A stretch of 64,000 nt of DNA from contig NW_019028982.1 of NCBI RefSeq assembly GCF_002105155.1, positions 1,178,001 to 1,242,000 on the forward strand. Reading direction: 5' to 3'. Positions within the stretch are counted from its first letter, which is position 1, and each line of letters begins with the position of its first letter. A program made the position numbers and the translations under genes. The notes under the pieces are model-generated. The model ran no database searches and was not told where the DNA came from. It saw only the letters and a program-made list of their open reading frames with translations. Origin of the DNA: Lobosporangium transversale. Taxonomy: Eukaryota. Positions 19,761 to 35,590 of the stretch are shown piece by piece.

Positions 19761-21376
19761 TGCATGTAATGCGGAAATACAGGCTGAATGGAACAAAGTA
19801 CAAGACAAAGTGAAAAAAAAAGAAATGGATACGCCACTCTACAGAGATGGCAGGAAGAAGACGATGATTGGCGGCGAAGTCAGAGACAACGGTGAAAGTG
19901 GAGATAGCAGGCAGACCACACGAAGGGTGCAACGAAGAAAAGTTGTCTTGGAAATATCTCCACTACTCAAAGCAAAAGATTGGTCCTCCGATCACTTTAA
20001 TCTTGCATTTCCATGTATCATTTATAAATGTCTCTATACCTTGTATGGTATTGTTGGTCAAAAATGGTTGATGTCATTTTGATAAAATTCTTATAAACCT
20101 TATTGAAATCTGTTTCCTCTTCCTTTTCTTTTCTTCCAAACGCATCCTTTCTCAAGTAATCTGGATATTACCAAGAATTAAAATAATTGGTCTCATCCGC
20201 ATTCGTAAAAATAAAAGCTCTGTTTGTGTTCGAATGGAAACAATCTTTCGCGGTTGTTACCCTTTTAAAATTCATCTAGGCCTTTGAAGACCCTGGAAAA
20301 ATGATTCTTAATGCATTGGACGATTCTTGTACGTCATGAGAACTTATAACCTTTGCTGTGCCATTCTTTGAATGGAATGCTTTCGCACTAGCGCGATTTA
20401 TACAAAGAATACAACGACACTCTACCCCCCTGACAGTCAATCAAAGATTCTATTCAGTTTAGTATTCTCATCAGTCATTAGAGCCCATCCAAGTGAAAGG
20501 AGTAAAGGAGTAACCGGTTGACTACTGATATACGAAAAATACTCCTTCTTCAACCCTCTCTTGCTTTCAACTTTGTATGGAATGAATTCACTAAAAAAAA
20601 AAAAATACGCAATCCGAAAATGAAATTATTGTAGCACGGCTCTCCAGCAATTTACATGTACATCCTTTGGAAGAGAAAAAAATCAATGGAGCTGTTGTCA
20701 GCAAAGCTGTTGTGTTTCCAAAAAAAAAAAAAAAAAAAAAAAAAAAAACGTGACTTAGCGCCACCAATTTGACATATGATAGTTGTTTGTTGGGGTGATC
20801 AACCTCTGAAAATCTTTTCCAACGGCTGATTGCACGCGAAACACTGTATACAGTGACATTTTTAGGTTGGAGTGGATCTCTTGGCAGCACGCGATTACTC
20901 GAGTAAAATCTTTAAAGATGGCGACAGAATAAGCATTGGCATAATGTTGTGCTATTAGAAGCAAATTAATCATCTTTTCCCATAAGCATGGCAAACATGT
21001 TTTACTTTGAAGTTTCTTCATGATTCAAAGTAGAAAATTCGTTCCATTTGTTTCCTTGTGTACCAGCTCTTGACCCGAAGAGCAACATAAACACGAGCTC
21101 AGGTACAATACAGAAACAGACACGAGCACGAGCTTAAGCACGGGTAGACCAGATTGGACCCCAACCAACTTTCTTGAGTCTACAGACACGCACGCTCTCG
21201 CCTTCTCTCTCTCTCTCCTCGCTTCTTCCTTCCTTCTTCCCTCTACTTTTCTCATCCCTACACTCTCTCACCTTCTACTCTTTGTTCTTGTCGCTCCCCA
21301 CATTCCTCATCTCTCCGTTTTGGGCGCTCTTTAAGACAATAGAAATTAAATATTAGAAGAGTGAGACTCTACAATC

Positions 21377-22525
21377 ATGGATTCTGAGCTCCGTAACAGG
21401 AAGGTCTCAACAACCCAGCTGGAGGTCAATGGCGTGTCCTCATCCAACAAGGTGCACGCTACCGCAGCAGTCCGATCAGGAACTCCTTCCATGACTGAAT
21501 CACCCGATCTCCATAATTCGCATGGCAGAGATTCGACCGATTCAGCTACTTCGGGTCAATCTCTATCAGAGTCCCAGAAGTTGAGCCTAGCCAGGGAACA
21601 GGAAGAGACTGCGTTTGGCAAAACTCCCAATGGCACAAGTATGAATCTCCAGTTGATCGACAATTTACTGTTGTTTACACCCACATTCAAAGATTGTTGT
21701 TCATTGTTGCTGATCCTCTCCTTTTTACAAATGCTATCGAACTACAGTTTTTCGCGTGCCTGTTACAAAGGACATGCTGAGCGAGATCTTTGATATGAGC
21801 AAGAAAAAGTCTGCTTTTGATCTCATCACCCTTGCCGTTATGGGTGTTCAGATTCTCATGTTCTTCACTCTACCCACATACATTAAACGTTGGCTGTTCC
21901 TGGCCCTCTTCTTATTCTGGAGAGCAGGATACAATGCGGGTTTGGGCTACTTGTTGAAACTTCAGAGCGAACGTAGAGCGTTGGTTGCTTGGGCTAAGGA
22001 ACAAGGCATTTTTGACAAAAAGCGTGGTGGTGGCTGGTATGAATGGCTCAAGCAAGAGCTCAGCTGCAAGATGGACTCGGACTACGATTTTGATGTAAAT
22101 AAATCTTCATGGTTGCTTGATCATTTGATCATTTATTCGAGGATGCATTCTCTTGAACTGATTTTTTTCACTCCATTTTGAACCCAATAGGCCGTACCTA
22201 TCGAATTCAACACATGGCTATTATACCGACAGCTTGTAGACCTAATCCTCATGAATGATTTCACTACCTATGTCTGCTTCGCTCTATCTTGGCTCACCTT
22301 CCCTGCCGGATCTGGCTTTTTTGGCCACGTATTGCGCTGGACCGCTGGGTTCATTCTTGTGTTCTTCAATATTTGGGTCAAGTTGGACGCACATCGTGTA
22401 GTCAAGGACTTTGCTTGGTGTAAGTTTACACCCTCTCCCTTCAATTTGCGGCCACGACAGTAACAGTAACGACAGTAGCATATGAAGCATCATGTATAAC
22501 CTTCTTCCTACGCTAATTGTGTATG

Positions 22526-22558
<33 letters not shown>

Positions 22559-25132
22559 TTGGGGTGACTTTTTCTTTCTGATTGAACAATCATTAACGTT
22601 TGATGGAGTCTTTGAGATGGCACCCCACCCAATGTACTCGGTTGGATATGCTGGTTACTACGGTATCTCCCTCATGATGGCCTCATACATGGTGCTCTTT
22701 GTTTCACTCTTTGCCCATGCCGCCCAATTTGCGTTCCTCACTTTGGTCGAGAACCCTCGTAAGTGTTTATTTTATGCTACCCTGTCTGATTAGCTTGGCA
22801 ATTTTGCAAAAAAAAAAAAAAAAAAAAAAAAAGTGCTCATATTTACTCTTGTCCTCACTTAGACATTGATAAGACCTACAATCCTCCTCAGATCCCTAAA
22901 AAGCGTGTCCCCACTACCACTGAGGCGTCATTGGGACTATCTACTGGTCAGAGCTCTGTTGTTGCCTCCCCTTCCGACCATGTTGCACCCATTGATCAAG
23001 CAGCAACACTTGTCCCTTGCGGATCGAAGGACATGTACAACACCTACTTTAGACGGGATCTCATTGTTTTCAAGAACTTTGATATTTTCCGTTCAAACGA
23101 TATTTTCGTGGCGCTTATTATCTTTTATGCTACCATTGTGCCGCTGCTGATTTCCAACACAGGACCTCGCTTCTTGACATTCATGATGGTTATTCAGGCC
23201 TTGATGTGGCGTGTTTTCCATTCCTATGTACTTGGTGCTGTCTTGAAGAGGCAGAGTGACAGCAAATTTTATACGAAGCATTTTATCAAGCACGGAGGCA
23301 CAGTACAGGATGCATTCCAAAGCTGGAAAAGCATTTTCAACTTGTCCAACTCGATGACATACGCTACCTTTTTCTTGGCTGCTTTCAAAATGTATTCAAT
23401 CCCGGACGATTGGACCTATGGTACCGTCCTACTTCGTCATGTCCTTGGGCTTGCATTGATTGCTCTCCATATTTGGGCCTCAGTCTCTGTCTTTGAGGTA
23501 CTGGGTGACTTTGGTTGGTTTTATGGTGATTTCTTTCTGGAAGACTCGTCCAGCGGTCTGTTCTACACTGGGATCTATAGGTAATGTTTTGTCCCTATTT
23601 AATGTTACGAAGCAACAGGCATGTGCACTCACAATATTACGTTAAAACTCAGCATCCATCCTACATCTGATCTATATAATCAACTATGAATAGATTTGTC
23701 AACAACCCTGAGAAAGTCATGGGCCATGCTGCATTCTGGGGTATGACCTTGATTTGCAATAGCTGGTCTATTTTTATCTTGGCCATGTTCTCCCAGGTCT
23801 CTAACTTCTTGTTCTTACACTATGTTGAGTCCCCTCACATGCGTAAGATTTACGGAAATAAGATTCGTAAAGATGCTGGTGTTGTCAAGACTGTAAAAGC
23901 TGCTAAAATCTTCCCCAAGAAAATGAAGGATGAAGTCAGCAAGATCCGCGAGAAGCTGGAGGAGACACCCGAAATTAAGGATGTACTTCAGAAGACACGG
24001 GTTGTCTCTGAGAAGGCACAAGAGATTGTCGAAGGTACACGTGATGACTTGAACGGCTTGGTCCAAAGTGTTGCTCCTCGTATACAAGAGATGGTCTCCA
24101 ATTCCAAGGCTCTACTTGAGAGCTCCAGAGAAAAATTAATTGTAGCGTAAGTCTTCAAACACGGCACCGAACTGAGGTTTAAATATGAATGATCAGCCGC
24201 TATTCTTTATTAACGCTAACTTTTATAATAGTCGAACTTGGGATGACATTGGAGTGTATGACAAGTCACAATATTCAGTAAAGATCATCAATGACGTTGC
24301 TCCGGCCGTCAATGCAGAGGGCATTCCCACCTACAGCCTTGGCCAAAAACTGACTGTAGAGTGGACAGCGCCTTTGAACCATGGTACTAAGGATTGGATC
24401 GGTATTTACAAGGTCTCAAGCAACAACTCCAAGGAAGTGACGTCTGTGGCTTCCAAGGGCCGCTATCTGTATGTTAACCGTGATTTGGGACTTGGAGAGG
24501 CCGAAGAAGGCGTGAATGATCATGCTGGCAAAGGCGATGGTGAGATTATTGAAGAGGAGGTTGTTTGGATTGAAGAAAAGGAGCTGTGTCGTGGCCGTGT
24601 TGTTTTCCTGGGCGACAAACTTCCATGGTTCCAAGGCACTTTCGAATTCAGATACCATCACCATGGACGATACAACGTTATGGCTTACACAACACCATTT
24701 GCCATTGCATGTAAGCAGGGTTAACTTCATATCCTTATGCTCATCCAAAAAAAAAAAAAAAAAAAAAAAAAAAACTTACAATTCGTTTTTTTATATCTTC
24801 TTAATATTGCAGTGGAAAACTACCAGGACGAGAAGGAGCACACTGTGGCCTCGATTAGCCATGCGCTCTTGCCATATGTCCAACGTTGTTTCAATTCTGA
24901 TGAAGAAACAATGCCAACCTCCGTGGATGAGCGCTTCATCATGATTAACGAATCAATCGCACAAAGGATTGTCAGGGGTATTCAGCTCATGTATGGAATC
25001 GAATTTACTTGGGAAGTAGTCGCAGTCGATATGAGCTGTCTTCATCTTGCTCTCCGTATCTTCACAGCTCGTCGAGCTCTGGCACCTTTCTCCTCTATTG
25101 ATTCGCATATTTCACTGTCGGATGAGTCTTAG
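21377..25132 (+). CDS. CHO2: Phosphatidylethanolamine N-methyltransferase, ~1002 aa
   Basis: Exons 21377..21638, 21748..22094, 22191..22419, 22558..22758, 22863..23580, 23694..24146, 24232..24710, 24813..25132 (3009 nt). Motifs [89 protein letters not shown]...FEFRYHH. Confidence 0.95.
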
Positions 25133-26427
25133 TTCATCTCAGTCCATCAAGAACAGCAATCTAAGGCATAGTTAAATATGTATAACGCATGGATATGAAG
25201 AATACTTTACCTTGGTTTCTTTTTTTCTTTTTCTAAAAAAATGCATTAGTGTATGTAGATATGAAGTATATATATGTAACAAATAAAATAAAAAAACACG
25301 AAACCATCATGCCTTTCATGCTAATTTTATCACCTAACGGCTTCTTGCTATCGCCGATACTTTCGACATCCACTGAATTTGGTCATCTTCCTTTGAAATG
25401 CGCAAGAAAATCCCAGCCCATTGATTACAGCGATCTTCAACAAATGAGAGATGATACTATCAGTCATTAATCAAGGGTAATGGGAACTATTATACCGGAT
25501 ATGGACAAACGCAAGCAAGAAGTCGCAGTGAATCATGGTTATAATCTCTAGATATTGAACGCCATTGTCGGCTAACTGAATTTGATTTTAAACGCAGCTA
25601 ATGCAGCAGTTACTCAAATCTGGGTCTCTTGAAGTATTTTTGGGCACAATGTATGCTTCAATCCAGGAGCTAGAGATAAAGGCTAATAGGGAGAAAACTA
25701 TCGACAGTGCTAACAACAGTGTTGACAAGCTCAATGCTGATCACCTCCAATGTCCCTGATTCCACTTTCCAGAGTTTATTGAATTTGCAACTGTATAGGC
25801 TTTGCCAAAACAGACCTTTTCTGCTCTCAATGGTGGCCGCACACCATAGTAAGAAAATATAGCCGAACATCTTTCTAAAGTTGTTCGAATGTTTGAGGAT
25901 AAGGCAGTCAAGGGATAATGCGCCCCAACAGGCGAAATATAGACCTGAAGGTTGTGCATATCGCGGTTTATGCCTTAGTTGTTTGCAATGGTACCAAATG
26001 TCTACTCCACGCACAGTTGAGGCTGTCTCATGCCTTGGTTTCCTGTTTCTTATCCCTCATCGATTGCAGTGCTTCGATGCAGCGCTCAATCTGGAGCCAT
26101 ATCAGGTATCCTTCATCGCTATATACATATTACCAAATATCGTCTCCGAATACTGCGGTAATTCTCGACCTTAGACTGTGAATGTTGTGATGAAATTTGA
26201 TCTGTGAAATATGAATTTTTGTGTTGATGCCTTGGGTGGTGGCAACACGTCTACATGTCATGTTGGACAAGCATGTTTGTGATCGTATTTATTGGATTTT
26301 GGAGTACAAAATATAAAGGGGGCCCACTGAACAGTCTCCATGTCTACAAAGATTGCTAAAATTCTTTTACATGTACTTTATTTTTAACTGTTAACAATAA
26401 AAAAATAAAACAAAATAAAATAAAGGC

Positions 26428-28441
26428 CTAAACGGGCTCAGCTGGAGCCAGGGGAGCATTAGGCACACACCAAAATCGGACACGATTATCATTACCACCA
26501 CTAACGATAGCGTTCTCAGCCGGAGAGGCTGAAATGGAGCGAATGACACCCTCTTGACCAAAATAGCGCTTCAACAAGGTGCCTGTGCGAGAGTCCCAGC
26601 AGACGATCGTGTTATTGGACTCATCCGAGCTAAAAACAAAATCCTCATTGTAGGAGAAGACAGTAGATTGTTTAACTGCCTTTTGAGCGGCGCCTTGGAA
26701 TCCATGGATAAGTTTACCGGAGCCTAAATCCCATAATTTGCTTACAGAATCCCAACCGCCTGATAAAATGTATTTGCCATTCTTGGAGATCGTGGCTGTG
26801 GTGACACCTTTACCTGAATGTGCATTTTCGATCGTCCGTACAACTTTTCCTGCAATAGCATCCCAAACTTTAATGGAACCGTCTTGGGATGCAGTGATGA
26901 ATACAGACCCCGTAGACGCATATTCGATATGATTGATACCTCCACGATGTGGACCCTGCTGTTGCTGTTGAGCCGCAATGTCGACAGAAGATGTTGAGGC
27001 TGAGGATGGTGTATGTTGTGGAGGGCCTGTGAAGGCTCGGGGAGTGAAGCATTGAAGGGTTTTGACATCAAAAATCCGGACAGTCTCGGCTTCCGAACCA
27101 ACCAATAGAAAATCGCCAGACGGGTGGAATGAGATTGAGTTGATGGGATGCGAGTCCTATGCGTTATTAGAAAGAAAAGAGGAGTGAGGATGCTATAAGA
27201 GGAAGGAAATATTTAAGCTTGGTCGCTTTTAACCTATGAAAGGTAGTATGTGAAGTAAGTTTGCCTTGGTTTCATGAAAATTCTTACCTGAAGGTATCGA
27301 AAGGATCGCTTCACAGAAGGTTTTGAAATATCATACAGCTTAACAACGGTGTCTGAGCTTGCTGCAAGCACCAAGCCATTAGGGTGAAAATCAACATCTG
27401 TCACAGGCTAATAAAAGGAAGAAAAAAAAAAAAAAAAAAAAAAAGGCGTCGTTATTTTTAAGATGATCATAAAGATCTACGAGGAAATGTAGAAAGTATT
27501 TGATTAGAAGCCTAGTAATCTTACAGTCTCATGATCATAAAGTGTGCGGATGACCGGATGTACATCATCACTAGCTTGTTTCATTTTATTCACATCCACA
27601 ATTTTGAGTGAGGAATCTGCAGAACCTGAGGCTGCGTATCGTCCGTCTCGGGTGAACGCTGTACAAGTCACTGCCTCCTTGTGTGTTGTTGTATGAACCA
27701 TATTGAGCGTGGGCGGATAAAGTGGCGATGATTTCGGATCGGTATCCAAGTTTAACCGTGTAAGGTTTGATCCTACTTCAAGGTCGTCATCTTCATCCAT
27801 AAATTGAGATGCCTCCACTTTGAAGTAGTCTGTGGGCTCAATTTCGACAGATTCCTCTAGATCAATTAAAGTCCCCAAAAAAAAATATATATATATATAT
27901 AAATATAAACATGCACTTTATTGCCACTGATAATTCAAAGATACTGGATCAATCTCTAACGAAAGATCTTACCGCGGGCAATGTACAGCATTTCACTGAG
28001 CTGAGAACTAGGCTTGATAGATGCTGATGTATGTGTTTGTTCAGCTACCATGAGTGCCAACTAAATAGAACAAAGGCCGTTCACCCATATGCGTTAGGAT
28101 AAGGTGATTATTTTCGGTCAATCCAAACATGCCTTTGAATACTCTATTATCCGTTTCTTAGAGTGTAATTCCTTTCCCCGTACCTGTGCATAGCCATATT
28201 CAGCAAGTTGGCTATAAGTCAAAAATATGAACATAACAGTCGTATAGAATGCATTGATTAATACACAATTGAAACACCAGGATCAAAGTTTGAATCCAGT
28301 GTTTATTTACACATACGTCTTTTTCTTCCACCAGGCCATGAGCATGGGCAACCAAGACACAACATGAACATGTTACAAATGTTACCTCACGATCAGAGGA
28401 ATGACCTCCTCTTGCCGCATCTGATTAGGTTCTGAAGGCAT
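26428..28441 (-). CDS. CSTF1: Cleavage stimulation factor 50 kDa subunit (N-terminal dimerisation domain plus WD40 repeats), ~450 aa
   Basis: Exons 28441..28386, 28211..28184, 28060..27973, 27856..27525, 27407..27288, 27156..26428 (1353 nt). N-terminal LIVSQLAEYGY; HKEAVTCTAFTRDGRYAASGSADSSLKI...HPVIRTLYDH matches the CstF-50 pattern; further WD repeats TASQDGSIKVWD and SGGWDSVSKLWD. Confidence 0.9.
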
Positions 28442-28593
28442 AATACTTGTTTCAAGTTAGAAGTTATCCTGGCTTTATTTTTCTTCCTACTACGCTCCTG
28501 CTCCTGTTTCTGTCCTGGAAATTTCGTAAAAGAGTTGTCCCATGGTGGAACGGGAGATGCCTTGAATCAGTGTGGCTTTGGAAAGATAAGTAA

Positions 28594-28956
28594 TGTTGGT
28601 TTTAGTTTTAGTCACGTGTAGAGGGTTCGCCACCAACTATTTAACGAGCAACAGCTCAGGAAAATCTGGCTCCTTGTTCCTTATTTTTACACAAGAGCCA
28701 TTTGAGTACTGACTGTTCTCGTCCAGGTAAAGAGCCCTCACAACGTTCGTCGTTAGTAGCCATAGATCATTAAAGGTTCCTTATTTTTACACAAGAGCCA
28801 TTTGAGTACTGACTGTTCTCGTCCAGTCTTCGAGTAGTGTGTGTGTGTTCTTTTATTGTGTTAGAATTATTTATCTATCAGCTGGAAGTGACCGGCTTCA
28901 TAATCCACCAAAACGACCTAAATCTCCTACCACATCTGCCCCTAAATTTTGCAACA
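28594..28956 (+). repeat. 5' LTR
   Basis: TGTTGG...GCAACA; identical by eye to 35176..35538. Contains TATTTAA at 28638, a 51-bp direct repeat (28676..28726 and 28776..28826), ATTAAA at 28769 and a GT-rich tract at ~28837..28854. Confidence 0.97.
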
Positions 28957-28963
28957 ATATTTC

Positions 28964-28981
28964 TGGTGATCTACGCAGGGG
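28964..28981 (+). other. tRNA primer-binding site
   Basis: TGGTGATCTACGCAGGGG, 7 nt after the 5' LTR. Its complement reads as a tRNA 3' end (T-stem CCTGC, acceptor strand GTAGATC, discriminator A, CCA). The tRNA isotype is not determined. Confidence 0.75.
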
Positions 28982-28993
28982 GTGGCAGCTACA

Positions 28994-31900
28994 ATGTCTT
29001 CCAATTTATCGATTCTTCTTACCATGATCCCGAAGTGGCCGTCGGCAGAGGCTGAGGGTCTAACCGCCGCGACATGGATCAGCGATTTTGGAGGTGTTAT
29101 CGAAGGAGAAACCCTGAGCAACAAGTTGATGTTCGTCGAGAGGCAGGCGACAGGCAAGATCCAACGCTGGATCAGGCGCTGGAGGATGACAAACAAGACG
29201 AATGGTGCCTGGAGCCAGTTCGTCAGCGATTTCATCATGGAGGCCTCTACCCCTAGAAGCCAGGATGTCACCCTGGACGAGTTGCATTCTATTAAGCAAG
29301 GAGAAGATGAGACGACAGCCAACTATGTACAACGAATGAAACTTACCATGGAACTCCTCGACCCAGAGTCTGGTTGCGACGCACAGCCGTACAAGATCCC
29401 AACAGCCACCGAGCGTCTACTGGCGTACAGATTTTGCAAGGGTTTGAGGCAAGACCATCCTTTCAAGGTCAAGAACAAAGAAGCGCCTGCGACCTTGAAG
29501 GAAACCTTCGAATCAGTGACACAATTGGTTGAAGGAAATCGTTGGGGCATTGACACCACTGAGAGCCGTGTCATAGCTCGCAGCAACGCTGAGCATGCTG
29601 CACCAATCGAGACGAATGTTCTGCTTGGATCGACCCTAGTGCCGAGGACGCACTACTCTGGCTTCCTAGCGGACTTCAAAGACGACAAAGAGAAAGTTAA
29701 TCAATTAAGCGTAGACGAATTAACAGACATGTTCGGAGCCTGGACCCTTGCTGCCGAGGAGCGAACTCCGGAGGCGCGAATCGCTCAGACTATCTCAAGA
29801 ATGAGCCCGGCTGTAGCGAGGCGAGTGTTTGGTTCCTCTGAATTGGCCAAGCATATTAGAGTGGAGGCTAGACCTAATGCCGTGCTCCAACCCGCCGAAG
29901 TTCGAAGTCAGCAGGCTATCCCTATGGCCCGTAGAACCTGCCATAAATGTAATCAAGAGGGGCACCTCTTGTCGTTCTGCCCATTGGTGGAATGCTTCCG
30001 ATGTGGCGAGCGAGGCCATACTTCGAAGGTTTGCACTAAGGAACAAGGAAGCCCCGCCACAGGCGCCAATAGCGTCCCATTGGCCACTCAAACTAACTCC
30101 TCGCTAAGAGTGCAAAGTTTAGAAATCTCCGCCACTAATGTCGCCCAATCATTTATCACGACTAAGCCACAGCGATTAAATTCGACAGGTGCCCAGCGAC
30201 GTCGCAGTGAGAGGACAGGCACTCCTGCAGGTCCATCGTCTCAACGAAGAGAGGAAACGAGAGGCACTACTCCACCTGTCCGAGGAATGCAGTGGGAGGC
30301 TGAGGCATCCACTAGTAGTGCGCAACCTTCTGGGGACCCCCACTTCCAGACAGTGACTTTTGATGACAGAGCGGTCGACGGGCGAGAGAATAATGTTGCA
30401 GAAGCTCCAAATGCGACGCCAAAGCGTACCAGGAAGCGCGTCATTCCTGATCCAGTGTTCGTTGATGCGGTCGAAGGATTGAATTTTGATTTGGCCACTC
30501 ACTCCAAGTACCGTGGAAAGATGGCAGTGCAACTCAAGGCAGCTGTTACCGAGGCCTGGGCCCGCCATGCCCCTCCAAGAAGAAGCAAGCCTAAGAGGAG
30601 TCAGTCAGCAATAGCTATGGCCAGGAACGTTCAAGGTGGCAAGGGTGATGTCACGACCGTCACCGCCTTGGGACGAGACTTCAACAACGCCGTTATTGAT
30701 CCAGGCAATGACCATACTATGATGGGCCTACATGTGGCAAACGCACTCGGACTGAAGTTAGAGCCTGCTACTCGTGCGGTGCTATTAGCCCATGGGTCCT
30801 TCCAGAAGCTTGCGGGCCGCACAAGACCTATCGATATTTATGTGTCCGGGATCCCCTTGAGAATGTCGATGGGAGTGATCGACTGTAAGGGCACATATGA
30901 CTTCCTCCTTGGCGATGACTGGCTCAAGGCGCTGAAAGCCAAGGCTGATTGGAGCAACGGTATCGTGTACTACGTGGAGAGTGAGGGAAGGACTATCACC
31001 CTTGGTGGCGGTCTAAATGTTCGCGCCTCAACCCCTCAGCCTACGACATCAACGTACTTGTCTGATGAGAGCGATGAGTATGATGATGAGTACGACGACT
31101 ATGAGGATGACGAATCAATCTACGAGACGGAAGAATCCGATGCTGATGCAGGGTACAGAGCCTTGAGAGTGAAGACAATAGAGGTTGGTGACCCGGATCT
31201 GCAGGCGATGACCGCAAGAGTGTTCTCTAGCAAGATACAGTGCGAGAATGACGATGCTCGCGTAAAAAGGCAGCCGTTCGCGGTTGACGGAGTCAACGTG
31301 GACATCAACCCAAATTTGTCCAATGAGCAATACGGACAGATTGTGGAGTTACTTGAAAAGAATAAGGACAGGCTGACTACCAACCTTGAGGACCTCGAAG
31401 TGACGTCTATTTTAGAACATGAGATCAACATTCAACCAGGCGCCAAGCCAGTGTACGTAGGATGGTGCAAACGGTACTCGCCGAAGGAGCTTGACTTCCT
31501 TAAGAAGAGTGTTGATGATGAGCTTAAGGCAGGAAAAATCATAGAGATGGAGAGCGAGTGGTGCGCGCCGCTGAGTCTTGCTCCTAAGAAAGACGGATCC
31601 TTGCGCAAGTGCGTCGCATACATAGGCCTAAATAAGGTTACCGAAAGGGAGAGCTGGCCACTGCCAAACATCGAGGAAATACTTGACAACTTAGGCGGAT
31701 TCGAGTACTACAGTAGCCTGGACGGATTTCAAGGTTATTACGTGATTGGCATCAAAAAAGAGCATGTCAAGTATCTTGGCTTCCGTACGCCTTTTGGGAC
31801 GTTTGCATACAAGGTAATGCCATTTGGGCTCAAGAACGCGCCACATACCTTCAGTCGCTTCGTTAGAAAAGTGTACTCAGACCTTATCGGAAGAGTGCTT

Positions 31901-34537
31901 GAGGCGTACATGGACGATGTGTGCGTGCGCACGATGACCTGGGGAGAGCATTTGAGAGCCCTCGATCATACGTTTGCGGCAGCTCGCGCAGGAGGAGTCA
32001 AGTACAAGACTAGTAAGCTCCATTTCGGGTATGACAAGGTGAAGTTTACTGGCCACGTGGTCGGCAAAGATGGAATTGAGGTCATGCCAGACAAAGTTGA
32101 CAAGGTCAAGAATTTCACCCCATTACGTAGCAAGGAAGATGTACGTGCATTCTTGGGCTTGACGGGCTACTATCGAAGGTTCGTCGAAAGCTACGCTCAG
32201 ATTGCAGAGCCGCTGACGAGGCTCCTCAAGAAAGGTGCAAGCTTCACCATGGGTCCTGAACAGGTGGCCGCAGTAAAGGGTCTCAAAGCCAAGTTAATTC
32301 AAGCTCCGGTACTTAAGGCTCCAGATTTCGAGAAGGATTGGGTGGTCTCGTGTGACGCCTGCAAATACGCTATGGGCGCAGTGCTAGAACAAGAAGATGA
32401 GGAGGGTAAGTTGAGACCGGTCTACTTTTACTCGAAGACCTTTCAAGGAGCCGAACGCAACTACTCTACCTTTGAGCAAGAGTGCCTCGCCGTTGTCATA
32501 GCCGTCAAGAAGTTTCGGCCTTACATCCTGGGTAGGTCCGTTGTCGTTTACACAGACCATGCGCCACTCAAATGGTTGTTTTCCAAGACTGATCTGACTG
32601 GTCGACCTGCGCGGTGGCAGATGATTCTGTCGGAATTCGAGCTGGTCATTAAGACCAAACCAGGTACGAAGAACGGCAATGCAGACGGGATGAGTCGCAT
32701 TATGTCGGAAGGAATAGCCACGGATGACATCGATGACGAGGTGCCAGAGTGTCTGAGCCGAAGGGCAGAATCCACAGGAGAAAAGTGGCTGGCGAGCCAA
32801 TGGTACGCGAACTTCTACATGTACCTAGCCGAGATGAGACTGGAGTTAGAAGACAAAGTTGAAATGAGGAGGATCAAGAGACAGGCATACAGGTTTCGAC
32901 TGACGAAGGAAGGTGACCTACTGTATAGAGATGCCGACAACAGAGAGAAGAGGTGCGTAGTTGAGGATGAAGTCGAAGGTGTGCTGAAGGAGGCACACGA
33001 CAAGGGCGGTCACTATGGAGCAGAGTCTACCCTAGCAACAGTTCGTGACGTGTGTTGGTGGCCAACGATGAGACGGGATGTATTCCACTGGGTCAAGTCT
33101 TGCGGCCGTTGCCAGCAATTTGGAAGTCGAGTGAAACATAACAGGTTGCATCCTACGGTCTCCGAGTTCCCATTTGAAGTTCTCTTCGTTGACTTGATTG
33201 AGAACTTAGTCGAAACGCCTAGGGGGATGACCACCATAGTCGTCTTCACAGATTCCTTCACCAAGTGGACTGAAGCACATGCAGTGGCCAACAAAGGCGC
33301 GCAAGGCGTCCTAGCTGTTCTATTTATGAAGATTATCTGTCGGTTCGGGCTCCCTGTTATGATTAGATCGGATGGAGGCCCCGCATTTCGTAACGAATTC
33401 AAGACTTTCTGTGACCTCTGGGGGATCAAGCACGTCACTGGTTCGACAAGGCATCCGCAAAGTCAGGGACAGGTCGAGGCGACAAATAAGCTTATCGAGG
33501 AGCGACTGAGGAGAGTACTGCCAGCTGGATCTAAGGATTGGGATGCATTCCTACCGAAAGCAGTATTCGACGTGAATTGTCGAGTCGTTAGGAGCACAGG
33601 AGTGTCGCCAATGGAAGCACTTATGGGCTACACAGGACAGTCAGCGTTACGGCGACTGTTCGCGGACGACAAGTTCCTCGTTTCAGCAGAGGCACCGGAA
33701 GAGAACGATGTAGTCCTAGAAGAAAGCATGGCGAGATTTATCGTAAGAAGAGAGGGAATCCGTGAGTATGCATACTCATGCAAGCTTAATGCCAATGACA
33801 GGATGAAACGTTACTATGATCGACGTGTTCGCCCACAATCGTTCGAAGTAGGATCAAGGGTTTACATGTTCAATTTGGATTTCGTCACAGGCTTTGGACG
33901 CAAGCTGGAGCCGCGTTGGTTAGGTCCATTTGAAGTAGTCTGGGCGAATGAAAAGGGATCATATGGGATCAAGACGGGTCGAACGCATTATGGCACAAAG
34001 GATGGGGTAGAAACAATTAATGGAGACTTCCTCAAGCTCGCAACTCAAAGGCAACGATTATGGGAAGATGATTTTATTGAGAACCTACAGAGAGCTACTG
34101 AGAAGAATCCCCACTACGCCGACACCGAACAACCTCTCGCGCCAGATCAATTACACCAGCCAAGTCTGGGTCGGGGGCGGGAGGACACAGCAAACGAAGG
34201 CACTCCAATCCAATCTCCACATCCCTTGTCGCCAAGGACAGGTCAAGCTCAATCTCGTGACGCTCCTCAGGCGCAAGTTGCACCTTCCGTGAACGAAGCC
34301 TCTCGCGAAGACGCGACTGGTCAGCCAAGCCTCTGGAGAATGCCACCTCGCCGTGAAGAAGATACTTCGCCCGTACGCGTTTCTCAATTGGCTCGTCTAT
34401 GTCTTGAAAGGCCTCAGCTGACCGCTTATTTAGCTCTCGAGCGGGGGGGGGAACTGTCTGGGACTGAGGAGATTCTGGAGAAGACTTCTCCGCTGCAAAT
34501 GGCGAAACAGAGGAAGGGCCAACCTCGTGGTCAGTAA
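28994..34537 (+). CDS. Single-frame Gag-Pol polyprotein, 1847 aa
   Basis: Two CCHC knuckles (CHKCNQEGHLLSFC, CFRCGERGHTSKVC); protease AVIDPGN; RT KVMPFGLKNAP and YMDD; RNase H CDAC...YSTFEQECLAV...YTDH; integrase HDKGGH...CGRC, VDLI/SDGG/QVEATN and the GPF motif KLEPRWLGPF. No chromodomain seen. Confidence 0.95.
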   Translation: MSSNLSILLTMIPKWPSAEAEGLTAATWISDFGGVIEGETLSNKLMFVERQATGKIQRWIRRWRMTNKTNGAWSQFVSDFIMEASTPRSQDVTLDELHSIKQGEDETTANYVQRMKLTMELLDPESGCDAQPYKIPTATERLLAYRFCKGLRQDHPFKVKNKEAPATLKETFESVTQLVEGNRWGIDTTESRVIARSNAEHAAPIETNVLLGSTLVPRTHYSGFLADFKDDKEKVNQLSVDELTDMFGAWTLAAEERTPEARIAQTISRMSPAVARRVFGSSELAKHIRVEARPNAVLQPAEVRSQQAIPMARRTCHKCNQEGHLLSFCPLVECFRCGERGHTSKVCTKEQGSPATGANSVPLATQTNSSLRVQSLEISATNVAQSFITTKPQRLNSTGAQRRRSERTGTPAGPSSQRREETRGTTPPVRGMQWEAEASTSSAQPSGDPHFQTVTFDDRAVDGRENNVAEAPNATPKRTRKRVIPDPVFVDAVEGLNFDLATHSKYRGKMAVQLKAAVTEAWARHAPPRRSKPKRSQSAIAMARNVQGGKGDVTTVTALGRDFNNAVIDPGNDHTMMGLHVANALGLKLEPATRAVLLAHGSFQKLAGRTRPIDIYVSGIPLRMSMGVIDCKGTYDFLLGDDWLKALKAKADWSNGIVYYVESEGRTITLGGGLNVRASTPQPTTSTYLSDESDEYDDEYDDYEDDESIYETEESDADAGYRALRVKTIEVGDPDLQAMTARVFSSKIQCENDDARVKRQPFAVDGVNVDINPNLSNEQYGQIVELLEKNKDRLTTNLEDLEVTSILEHEINIQPGAKPVYVGWCKRYSPKELDFLKKSVDDELKAGKIIEMESEWCAPLSLAPKKDGSLRKCVAYIGLNKVTERESWPLPNIEEILDNLGGFEYYSSLDGFQGYYVIGIKKEHVKYLGFRTPFGTFAYKVMPFGLKNAPHTFSRFVRKVYSDLIGRVLEAYMDDVCVRTMTWGEHLRALDHTFAAARAGGVKYKTSKLHFGYDKVKFTGHVVGKDGIEVMPDKVDKVKNFTPLRSKEDVRAFLGLTGYYRRFVESYAQIAEPLTRLLKKGASFTMGPEQVAAVKGLKAKLIQAPVLKAPDFEKDWVVSCDACKYAMGAVLEQEDEEGKLRPVYFYSKTFQGAERNYSTFEQECLAVVIAVKKFRPYILGRSVVVYTDHAPLKWLFSKTDLTGRPARWQMILSEFELVIKTKPGTKNGNADGMSRIMSEGIATDDIDDEVPECLSRRAESTGEKWLASQWYANFYMYLAEMRLELEDKVEMRRIKRQAYRFRLTKEGDLLYRDADNREKRCVVEDEVEGVLKEAHDKGGHYGAESTLATVRDVCWWPTMRRDVFHWVKSCGRCQQFGSRVKHNRLHPTVSEFPFEVLFVDLIENLVETPRGMTTIVVFTDSFTKWTEAHAVANKGAQGVLAVLFMKIICRFGLPVMIRSDGGPAFRNEFKTFCDLWGIKHVTGSTRHPQSQGQVEATNKLIEERLRRVLPAGSKDWDAFLPKAVFDVNCRVVRSTGVSPMEALMGYTGQSALRRLFADDKFLVSAEAPEENDVVLEESMARFIVRREGIREYAYSCKLNANDRMKRYYDRRVRPQSFEVGSRVYMFNLDFVTGFGRKLEPRWLGPFEVVWANEKGSYGIKTGRTHYGTKDGVETINGDFLKLATQRQRLWEDDFIENLQRATEKNPHYADTEQPLAPDQLHQPSLGRGREDTANEGTPIQSPHPLSPRTGQAQSRDAPQAQVAPSVNEASREDATGQPSLWRMPPRREEDTSPVRVSQLARLCLERPQLTAYLALERGGELSGTEEILEKTSPLQMAKQRKGQPRGQ

Positions 34538-34811
34538 GGGCAACCACCTCAGGAGAAGCAGAAGAAGGGGGAGTGACAACGACGGCAGGAGCAGGAACAA
34601 CGGCAGGAGTAGAAGAAGAAGCAGAAGCAGGAGGAGTGGTAGGGGTCGAAGGAGTGATAGGAGAGTGAGAAGTGACAGCAGGACGCGACTCTGGAGACGT
34701 GCCCAAAGACAGACTTAAGCTCTTGTCTGAAGAGGGAAGCATTGTCTTGGTGGAAGTGGTTGGTCTTGGGCAAGGAGGAACCTCGTCTTTCTTAATAACA
34801 GTGCGGGCCAT
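34095..34811 (-). CDS. Putative antisense accessory ORF of the retrotransposon, 238 aa
   Basis: ATG GCC CGC at 34811, TAG at 34095. S/P/T-rich N-terminal half, KRSAEAFQDIDEPIEKRVR (bipartite NLS-like), and a helical C-terminus. Overlaps 443 nt of the pol 3' end. Confidence 0.6.
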   Translation of the reverse strand: MARTVIKKDEVPPCPRPTTSTKTMLPSSDKSLSLSLGTSPESRPAVTSHSPITPSTPTTPPASASSSTPAVVPAPAVVVTPPSSASPEVVALTDHEVGPSSVSPFAAEKSSPESPQSQTVPPPARELNKRSAEAFQDIDEPIEKRVRAKYLLHGEVAFSRGLADQSRLRERLRSRKVQLAPEERHEIELDLSLATRDVEIGLECLRLLCPPAPDPDLAGVIDLAREVVRCRRSGDSSQ

Positions 34812-34874
34812 GATGACGATGAAGTAGTTCAAGCAGGGCAAGGAGGAAGGAGTTGCGAATGAAAAAAAAAAAAG

Positions 34875-34911
<37 letters not shown>

Positions 34912-35167
34912 AATGGAGGAATGAACCAACATTTATGTCCATGGCAACATCATCATGTGGAAGTAATGGCGTGATCACGGATCAAAATGATTGGCCGAAG
35001 AAAGAAAATTTTCCTTGGTCGATGCCAAGGCGAACCAAAGGGTGACAAGAACAATGATGCAATGACCAAAATGCGGGGTAGCAAGAGTCAAGGTGGTAGA
35101 AGCGCAAACAGCACAATGAGTTTCTTTCTTTTTGAGCTGCGGCTTGGCGGAGCCGAACTTCGCAGCT

Positions 35168-35175
35168 GGTGGGGG
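35168..35175 (+). other. Short polypurine tract (GGTGGGGG)
   Basis: Immediately precedes the 3' LTR TG; preceded by the inverted repeat AGCTGCG (35135..35141) / CGCAGCT (35161..35167). Confidence 0.6.
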
Positions 35176-35538
35176 TGTTGGTTTTAGTTTTAGTCACGTG
35201 TAGAGGGTTCGCCACCAACTATTTAACGAGCAACAGCTCAGGAAAATCTGGCTCCTTGTTCCTTATTTTTACACAAGAGCCATTTGAGTACTGACTGTTC
35301 TCGTCCAGGTAAAGAGCCCTCACAACGTTCGTCGTTAGTAGCCATAGATCATTAAAGGTTCCTTATTTTTACACAAGAGCCATTTGAGTACTGACTGTTC
35401 TCGTCCAGTCTTCGAGTAGTGTGTGTGTGTTCTTTTATTGTGTTAGAATTATTTATCTATCAGCTGGAAGTGACCGGCTTCATAATCCACCAAAACGACC
35501 TAAATCTCCTACCACATCTGCCCCTAAATTTTGCAACA
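35176..35538 (+). repeat. 3' LTR
   Basis: 363 bp; identical by eye to the 5' LTR. Confidence 0.97.
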
Positions 35539-35590
35539 GTAAGTATGCATTGCCCCTTAATCTTTGGGCTAAGCTTTTATGTAGAGCTTT

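Follow-up and report, generated by a model that had tools for sequence, protein, structure and literature searches.

Antisense open reading frames (ORFs) located between pol and the 3′ long terminal repeat (LTR), termed aORF-3R, are known in plant LTR retrotransposons such as maize Grande (gene23), rice RIRE2, Silene Retand and bean PvRetro13, and, of these, gene23 of Grande is driven by a promoter of its own and yields a protein that is nuclear (PMC7264820). The accessible text of PMC11963269 states that the Retand antisense ORFs mostly carry TRP28 and that the region from pol to the 3′ LTR of Retand spans 2.9–6.6 kb. A fungal antisense gene, brtn, lies between pol and the 3′ LTR of the Boty-like (BcGypsy1) elements of Botrytis cinerea and Sclerotinia (PMC7264820; PMC8365987, in the part available). 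Antisense transcription is also known from Drosophila micropia, whose non-coding antisense RNAs are complementary to reverse transcriptase (RT), and from human T-cell leukaemia virus 1 (HTLV-1), in which the minus-strand antisense gene HBZ encodes a nuclear regulator and has its promoter in the 3′ LTR (PMC7264820; available part of PMC11963269). The function of the antisense ORFs is an open question, and a search for antisense and spliced transcripts has been called for (PMC7264820). Here, we analysed a 64,000-nucleotide stretch of Lobosporangium transversale (NCBI RefSeq assembly GCF_002105155.1, contig NW_019028982.1, positions 1,178,001–1,242,000; hereafter the window, in whose coordinates all positions are given), which contains an intact Ty3/gypsy element at 28594–35538 with an antisense ORF overlapping the end of its pol, and found that the family of this element is transcribed in antisense into a spliced RNA.

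The antisense ORF (34095–34811, minus strand) encodes an orphan protein of 238 aa (MARTVIKK...), and its start codon has A at -3 and G at +4. A first-pass annotation, made from the letters of the window alone, had placed this ORF with its start in the 3′ non-coding region and its end overlapping the last 443 nt of pol; these coordinates were found to be correct, and 146 codons are open in both frames. From stop to stop, the ORF is 284 codons long, which makes it the longest frame of the element after gag-pol, the next being 149. The same antisense frame under the body of pol contains 109 stops in 1700 codons and its longest open run is 61. The 91 codons that do not overlap pol were open in 11% of base shuffles, and the significance thus rests on the whole ORF. 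The ORF was without stop or gap in the listed contigs of all four sequencing runs (4/4) in which it was followed, these contigs being majority sequence in which rare variants are lost. Nine variant sites were recorded in the element, of which seven were in pol (five silent), two in the ORF (S28 silent and V46A) and none in the overlap, where less than one was expected, so that the last count has no power; nine sites are also too few for a selection test (dN/dS). The antisense ORF is thus real and, with the RNA described below, probably an expressed gene.

When compared with the plant aORF-3R, the ORF of this element has the same place, downstream of the integrase core and upstream of the 3′ LTR, and a putative upstream promoter of its own and a motif resembling a nuclear localization signal (NLS), whereas its overlap with pol and its absence from the divergent relatives in which it was sought set it apart. 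The distances are also different from those of Retand, the 3′ LTR here being 638 nt from the pol stop and ~1.1 kb from the place where pol ends in the relatives. The antisense ORF differs from Retand/Tat in carrying no TRP28 or other Pfam domain, and TRP28 (PF04195) identity was rejected as no Pfam family matched the whole ORF at E ≤ 1 or its C-terminal half at E ≤ 0.1. Retand/Tat elements have an additional RNase H domain in pol (PF13456), whereas the gag-pol here had no extra RNase H match in Pfam and, unlike that of chromoviruses, no chromodomain match after integrase. The Boty elements, compared by description, are likewise fungal Ty3/gypsy elements whose antisense gene follows pol and precedes the 3′ LTR, but their host is an ascomycete. 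The precedent to which the first-pass annotation had appealed is not confined to plant elements. As in micropia and HTLV-1, antisense transcription runs back across the element; the micropia RNAs are non-coding, and the promoter here, unlike that of HTLV-1, is inferred to be internal. A literature search, outside of which most subscription journals lie, returned no report of such an ORF in an LTR element of Mucoromycota or of one overlapping pol, and antisense ORFs are not mentioned in the accessible text of PMC3248453 and PMC13547354.

The RNA was sought in contigs of public sequencing runs. The stretch was contained in seven of the eight runs listed, which come from four studies, and none of them is recorded as RNA. 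Contigs of two runs, X7 and the DNA run X2, were placed on 20500–35170. X7 bridged six GT..AG gaps in a plus-strand host gene with a PEMT domain and four CT..AC gaps in a minus-strand WD40 gene, whereas X2 bridged none, which showed X7 to be RNA. Because the first three joints of the WD40 gene restore an in-frame protein start, CT..AC was read as a minus-strand intron. Two more CT..AC gaps were bridged inside gag-pol by contig 11 of X7, where X2 is continuous (one contig over 30225–34852). These are GT-AG introns of the antisense RNA, one of 131 nt (31718–31848, minus strand; GTATGT...CAG) in RT and the other of 86 nt (32384–32469, minus strand; GTAGAG...TAG) in RNase H, and their sizes are host-like (host introns 85–174 nt). 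The spliced contig is 3677 nt long and covers 28931–32824 of the minus strand, the upper end being computed from its length. Thus, the element family is transcribed in antisense, with a spliced RNA over RT and RNase H. The splicing argues for a nuclear transcript of RNA polymerase II (Pol II) rather than for a copy of sense RNA made by an RNA-dependent RNA polymerase (RdRP). An antisense transcript of the family, the lack of which would have spoken against the gene in the first-pass annotation, was hence present, with two introns to fix its strand. The same annotation had proposed double-stranded RNA (dsRNA) over the integrase tail; the antisense RNA reaches further than that, over gag, RT and RNase H.

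A second contig of the RNA run, contig 12 (32919–34810; 1892 nt), is unstranded and collinear over integrase and the antisense ORF less its first base. X7 has no cover over 32825–32918, and on the minus strand a candidate third intron of 97 nt (32825–32921; GTAGGT...CTAAC...CTAG), which none of the listed contigs bridges, was recognised by consensus. The ends of contigs 11 and 12 match to the base its acceptor and its donor plus a 3-nt microhomology, respectively; a fit of this kind is met at 14 of the 4901 antisense-strand positions and is a lead only for contig 12 being minus-strand RNA. Listed cover is also missing from X7 over 34811–35155, where the DNA runs extend to 34852 and from 34920; transcription beginning immediately above the ATG would agree with this gap, which was not counted as evidence, the records being filtered and from one study. 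Contig depths (X7, 350 over the ORF and 27 over gag-pol; X2, 60 vs 7–11) were not used for expression or copy number. Once these two introns are taken out, the antisense ORF is the only ATG-led frame of more than 130 aa on the minus strand between 34811 and 28931. Another X7 contig matches 47 nt (34586–34632) within the low-complexity part of the ORF before it diverges, probably a chance match.

The predicted protein has the three parts which had been proposed for it. Residues 1–125 are rich in P (20%), S (20%) and T (12%) and are predicted to be disordered; a predicted bipartite NLS-like motif (KR-x13-KRVR, residues 129–147; 34371–34427, minus strand) follows; and the C-terminal half was modelled as helical by single-sequence AlphaFold2. 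In shuffles of residues 126–238 (n = 20000), the NLS-like motif recurred in 0.14% by a strict pattern, which was picked after the motif had been seen, and in 5.3% by a looser one. The model of residues 115–238 is a two-helix hairpin with mean pLDDT (predicted local distance difference test) of 75, a predicted template modelling score (pTM) of 0.51 and 39 of 124 residues at pLDDT ≥ 90; three further models of these residues reached 66–71 and one 39. The hairpin spans residues 142–208 (34188–34388, minus strand), with block pLDDT of 82–96. The pol frame over the same DNA gave a pTM of 0.16 and no residue among 147 at pLDDT 90, so a confident fold is predicted in the ORF frame and not in the pol frame. 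An env-like identity was rejected, the ORF being antisense and without transmembrane segment (highest 19-residue hydropathy 1.08), and so was a zinc cluster, as Cys occurs only at 14, 204, 209 and 230. No match was found in ESM Atlas or, as a homologue, elsewhere in the window; among PDB sequences four matches had E of 0.055–0.98 and none was a homologue. Rfam gave no matches. Structural relatives, for which Foldseek on the C-terminal half had been suggested, did not appear, as none of the 500 matches counted reached E ≤ 0.001, whether in PDB or in BFVD.

Upstream of the ORF start, the minus strand has an AT-rich (41% GC) non-coding stretch (34812–35165), which is the putative promoter. Reading towards the ORF, it includes a CCAAT box (34990–34994), five upstream ATGs (34932–34956), a 47-nt poly(T) tract (34862–34908), an initiator-like TCATTC (34862–34857) and, between the tract and the ORF start, a pyrimidine-rich leader of 50 nt without upstream ATG, all on the minus strand. 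The first-pass annotation had taken such features for a host-like promoter; they lie where it placed them, but as evidence for a promoter they carry little, because CCAAT is at chance level and poly(T) common in the window. A sense retrocopy as the source of the A tract was rejected, no separate plus-strand ORF of more than 94 codons being present there and such tracts being common in the window. The 22 homopolymer runs of at least 15 nt in the window (18 A and 4 T on the plus strand) are oriented irrespective of the strand of the nearby gene, possibly an assembly effect.

The relatives of the element bear on how the overlap with pol arose. Among named proteins, the closest is the Entomortierella parvispora gag-pol EMPS_05409 (P0002), 77% identical over RT/RNase H, which makes a Mortierellaceae fungus the likely host, and identities within the clade are 74–77% over these domains. 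P0002 and two metagenomic relatives, P0001 and L001, have the same two CCHC knuckles and single gag-pol frame as the element; P0001 and P0002 were compared as proteins, and P0002 as annotated ends inside integrase. L001 (66% integrase identity) is the only related DNA, found as one of 87 metagenome pattern matches, while 40 and 12 viral matches and 116 prokaryote-genome matches yielded none. Unlike the element, P0001 and L001 lack the C-terminal extension of pol (34070–34537, plus strand), ~150 aa past the end in these two relatives and predicted to be disordered. After the WxGP[F/Y] motif, pol continues for 57 aa in P0001 and 206 aa here; L001 pol stops at the matching place, its polypurine tract follows 49 nt on, and then an LTR-like TG, the second LTR being off the contig. 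L001 thus differs from the element also in having no module between integrase and the 3′ LTR. The pol tail had no Pfam match. As pol is already over before the overlap in P0001 and L001, read-through into the module is the most likely origin of the tail in this element. When either protein was kept and synonymous codons were resampled, 3.4–4.1 stops were expected in the other frame and zero occurred in 0.5–1.8% of trials (5000 resamplings, four codon usage tables, post hoc, both directions).

On these grounds, we propose that an internal antisense promoter makes the mRNA of a small, nuclear, helical protein that adjusts transcription or integration of the element, and a read-through RNA that limits gag-pol through dsRNA or interference, a reading which we consider moderately probable. 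The module, 1.1 kb of sequence that separates integrase from the 3′ LTR and holds the 238-codon antisense ORF, would have been gained in this lineage, replacing the old end of pol, so that pol now reads ~150 probably disordered residues over the ORF. A promoter in 34812–35165 would drive Pol II over the ORF and onward through pol, the antisense RNA likely beginning just upstream of the ORF, and on its way through pol the transcript would be spliced at cryptic sites, the antisense strand there being rich in pyrimidines. The protein, with its S/T-P-rich disordered half, bipartite NLS and two-helix hairpin, would enter the nucleus and may tune transcription or integration of the element via protein contacts, by analogy with what has been proposed for GENE23 of maize Grande. 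The long read-through RNA, complementary to nearly all of gag-pol, could pair with genomic RNA and damp gag-pol by dsRNA and RNA interference (RNAi) or by transcriptional interference.

Several observations weigh against this proposal. The antisense protein had no homologue among 2895 and 977 candidates from a 5.8-billion collection at near and longer lengths, or among 1.84 billion representatives of any length, and folding from a single sequence is biased towards amphipathic helices. The evidence from RNA comes from a single run of one study, with unstranded contigs and a strain differing from the window at seven listed sites, and the antisense RNA might also stem from an LTR promoter or, where another copy is inserted, from a host gene. 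Intron-like sites in gag-pol number 16 on the antisense and 3 on the sense strand, from which the antisense introns are probably cryptic. At the upstream stretch, CCAAT is expected by chance with P of 0.33–0.39 per 364 nt, and the poly(T) tract is one of the 22 A/T runs of at least 15 nt in the window, several of which lie within host introns. The overlap looks like pol read-through, and its test, being symmetric, is silent on which frame came first. As L001 is without the module, the module is dispensable for near kin. Retention of the ORF in the family, to which the first-pass annotation had tied the gene, accordingly holds in the four runs and fails in L001 if that element is counted as family; with one DNA relative, gain here is indistinguishable from loss in L001. 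Finally, the run X1 alone breaks into two contigs, which overlap by 30 nt at 34105–34134, and this break is perhaps a copy leaving the consensus at 34134/5 (codon 226), perhaps a form without the module.

The same observations may be read in other ways. The module could be an antisense promoter for a regulatory RNA as in micropia, the ORF being young or neutral in a GC-rich stretch and its protein irrelevant. This is consistent with the antisense RNA seen over RT/RNase H, with a protein lacking homologues and with the chance openness of the 91 non-overlapping codons; micropia antisense RNAs are non-coding (PMC7264820), and RNAi represses retrotransposons in Mucorales, as the available part of PMC9963178 describes. 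We regard it as unlikely; against it stand 238 open codons in a frame so dense in stops under the pol body, the good start context of the ORF, and a confident helical fold and NLS-like motif which are predicted in the ORF frame only. Alternatively, host-like DNA with a promoter and an orphan gene or fragment might have been captured recently and persist as transcribed cargo of no use to the element. Absence of the module in L001, the host-like, AT-rich upstream stretch with its homopolymer tract, the codon usage of the non-overlapping ORF codons, which is nearer to that of the host than is pol (index 0.80 vs 0.70), and the possible copy departing at 34134/5 in X1 would all fit such a passenger. 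Yet searches at near and longer lengths, and of the rest of the window, gave no host homologue, captured genes are usually sense-oriented (PMC7264820) and all four runs have the module in their majority contigs; we take this explanation to be improbable.

Selection on both frames would be a further possibility, in which the pol tail is an integrase extension maintained as a signal for tethering or import, with the antisense gene arising by overprinting it. Both frames are open at P of about 1% in either direction, none of the nine listed variant sites falls in the overlap, a count without power, and other gypsy proteins are known with long integrase tails; but the P0001 and L001 pol ends before the overlap, and the tail, which has neither fold nor Pfam match, starts about where the module starts, so that dual coding appears quite improbable. 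A bolder version of our proposal would make this a newborn accessory gene. A plant-related, non-chromovirus fungal element would have independently gained an orphan antisense gene, sharing 146 codons with integrase under selection on both strands, and one promoter would yield both a nuclear regulator and a spliced silencing RNA, a two-layer self-control like that of HBZ, which is itself spliced and helical. We hold this version to be rather unlikely. What is new at this locus is the orphan protein, its overlap with pol, the non-chromovirus fungal lineage, the long spliced antisense RNA across RT/RNase H, and the absence of the gene from a near relative.

The element that carries the antisense ORF is intact and recently inserted, as seen from its identical LTRs and target duplication. 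A 4-bp target-site duplication, GTAA, flanks it (28590–28593 and 35539–35542). The 5′ LTR (28594–28956, plus strand; 363 nt, TG...CA) and the 3′ LTR (35176–35538, plus strand) are identical at all bases; a PBS-like stretch led by TGG, resembling a primer-binding site (28964–28981, plus strand), lies 7 nt past the former and the polypurine tract GGTGGGGG (35168–35175, plus strand) adjoins the latter. No tRNA gene occurs within the window. The gag-pol (28994–34537, plus strand) is a single ORF of 1847 aa with gag, two CCHC knuckles, protease, RT, RNase H and integrase in the order of Ty3/gypsy LTR retrotransposons, and the protease motif is DPGN in the element, P0001 and P0002.

Each LTR has an internal direct repeat of ~50 nt, and many diverged LTR variants are present in the same sequencing runs. 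Loose ends at the LTR edges in the runs show that the family has inserted elsewhere in this organism as well; the flanks at such insertions end ATAA, ATAC or ATAT (runs X1, X2, X3 and X7), which with GTAA here suggests a possible target preference. In DNA run X2, one copy has a 47-nt gap at 28931–28979, removing the LTR end and PBS-like stretch, and a loose end beginning TGTTG at 30254 inside gag-pol may mark a further LTR element that landed in one of the copies. A circular form suggested by the X2 joint 35170>28594 was rejected as an artefact, the mapped stretch having ended before the 3′ LTR. The element sits 174 nt upstream (28420–28594) of the start codon of the minus-strand WD40 host gene, which we take to resemble CstF-50, and the junction with the flank of this gene is present in X2. 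Antisense RNA from the copy here would head towards the promoter of the WD40 gene.

The lineage of the element was examined in RT/RNase H trees, using FastTree on 73 of 82 rows (nine short alignments dropped) and IQ-TREE on 22 hand-picked rows. The element groups with P0001 and P0002 in a single clade (100/100, IQ-TREE), outside the chromodomain-rich group, and this clade may be an undescribed fungal lineage. In two trees, it joins plant rows without chromodomain match (99; 94/96, the latter below cut-off, with long branches and no reference Athila/Tat sequences), and the grouping with plant non-chromovirus rows is a lead and not a placement.

Since the element is intact and small, has identical LTRs and places the start codon of the ORF outside pol, the protein, the antisense RNA and the pol tail should be separately removable in a transposition assay. 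The near relative that lacks the module offers a natural comparison, and its existence suggests repeated acquisition of genes of this kind from unrelated sequence.

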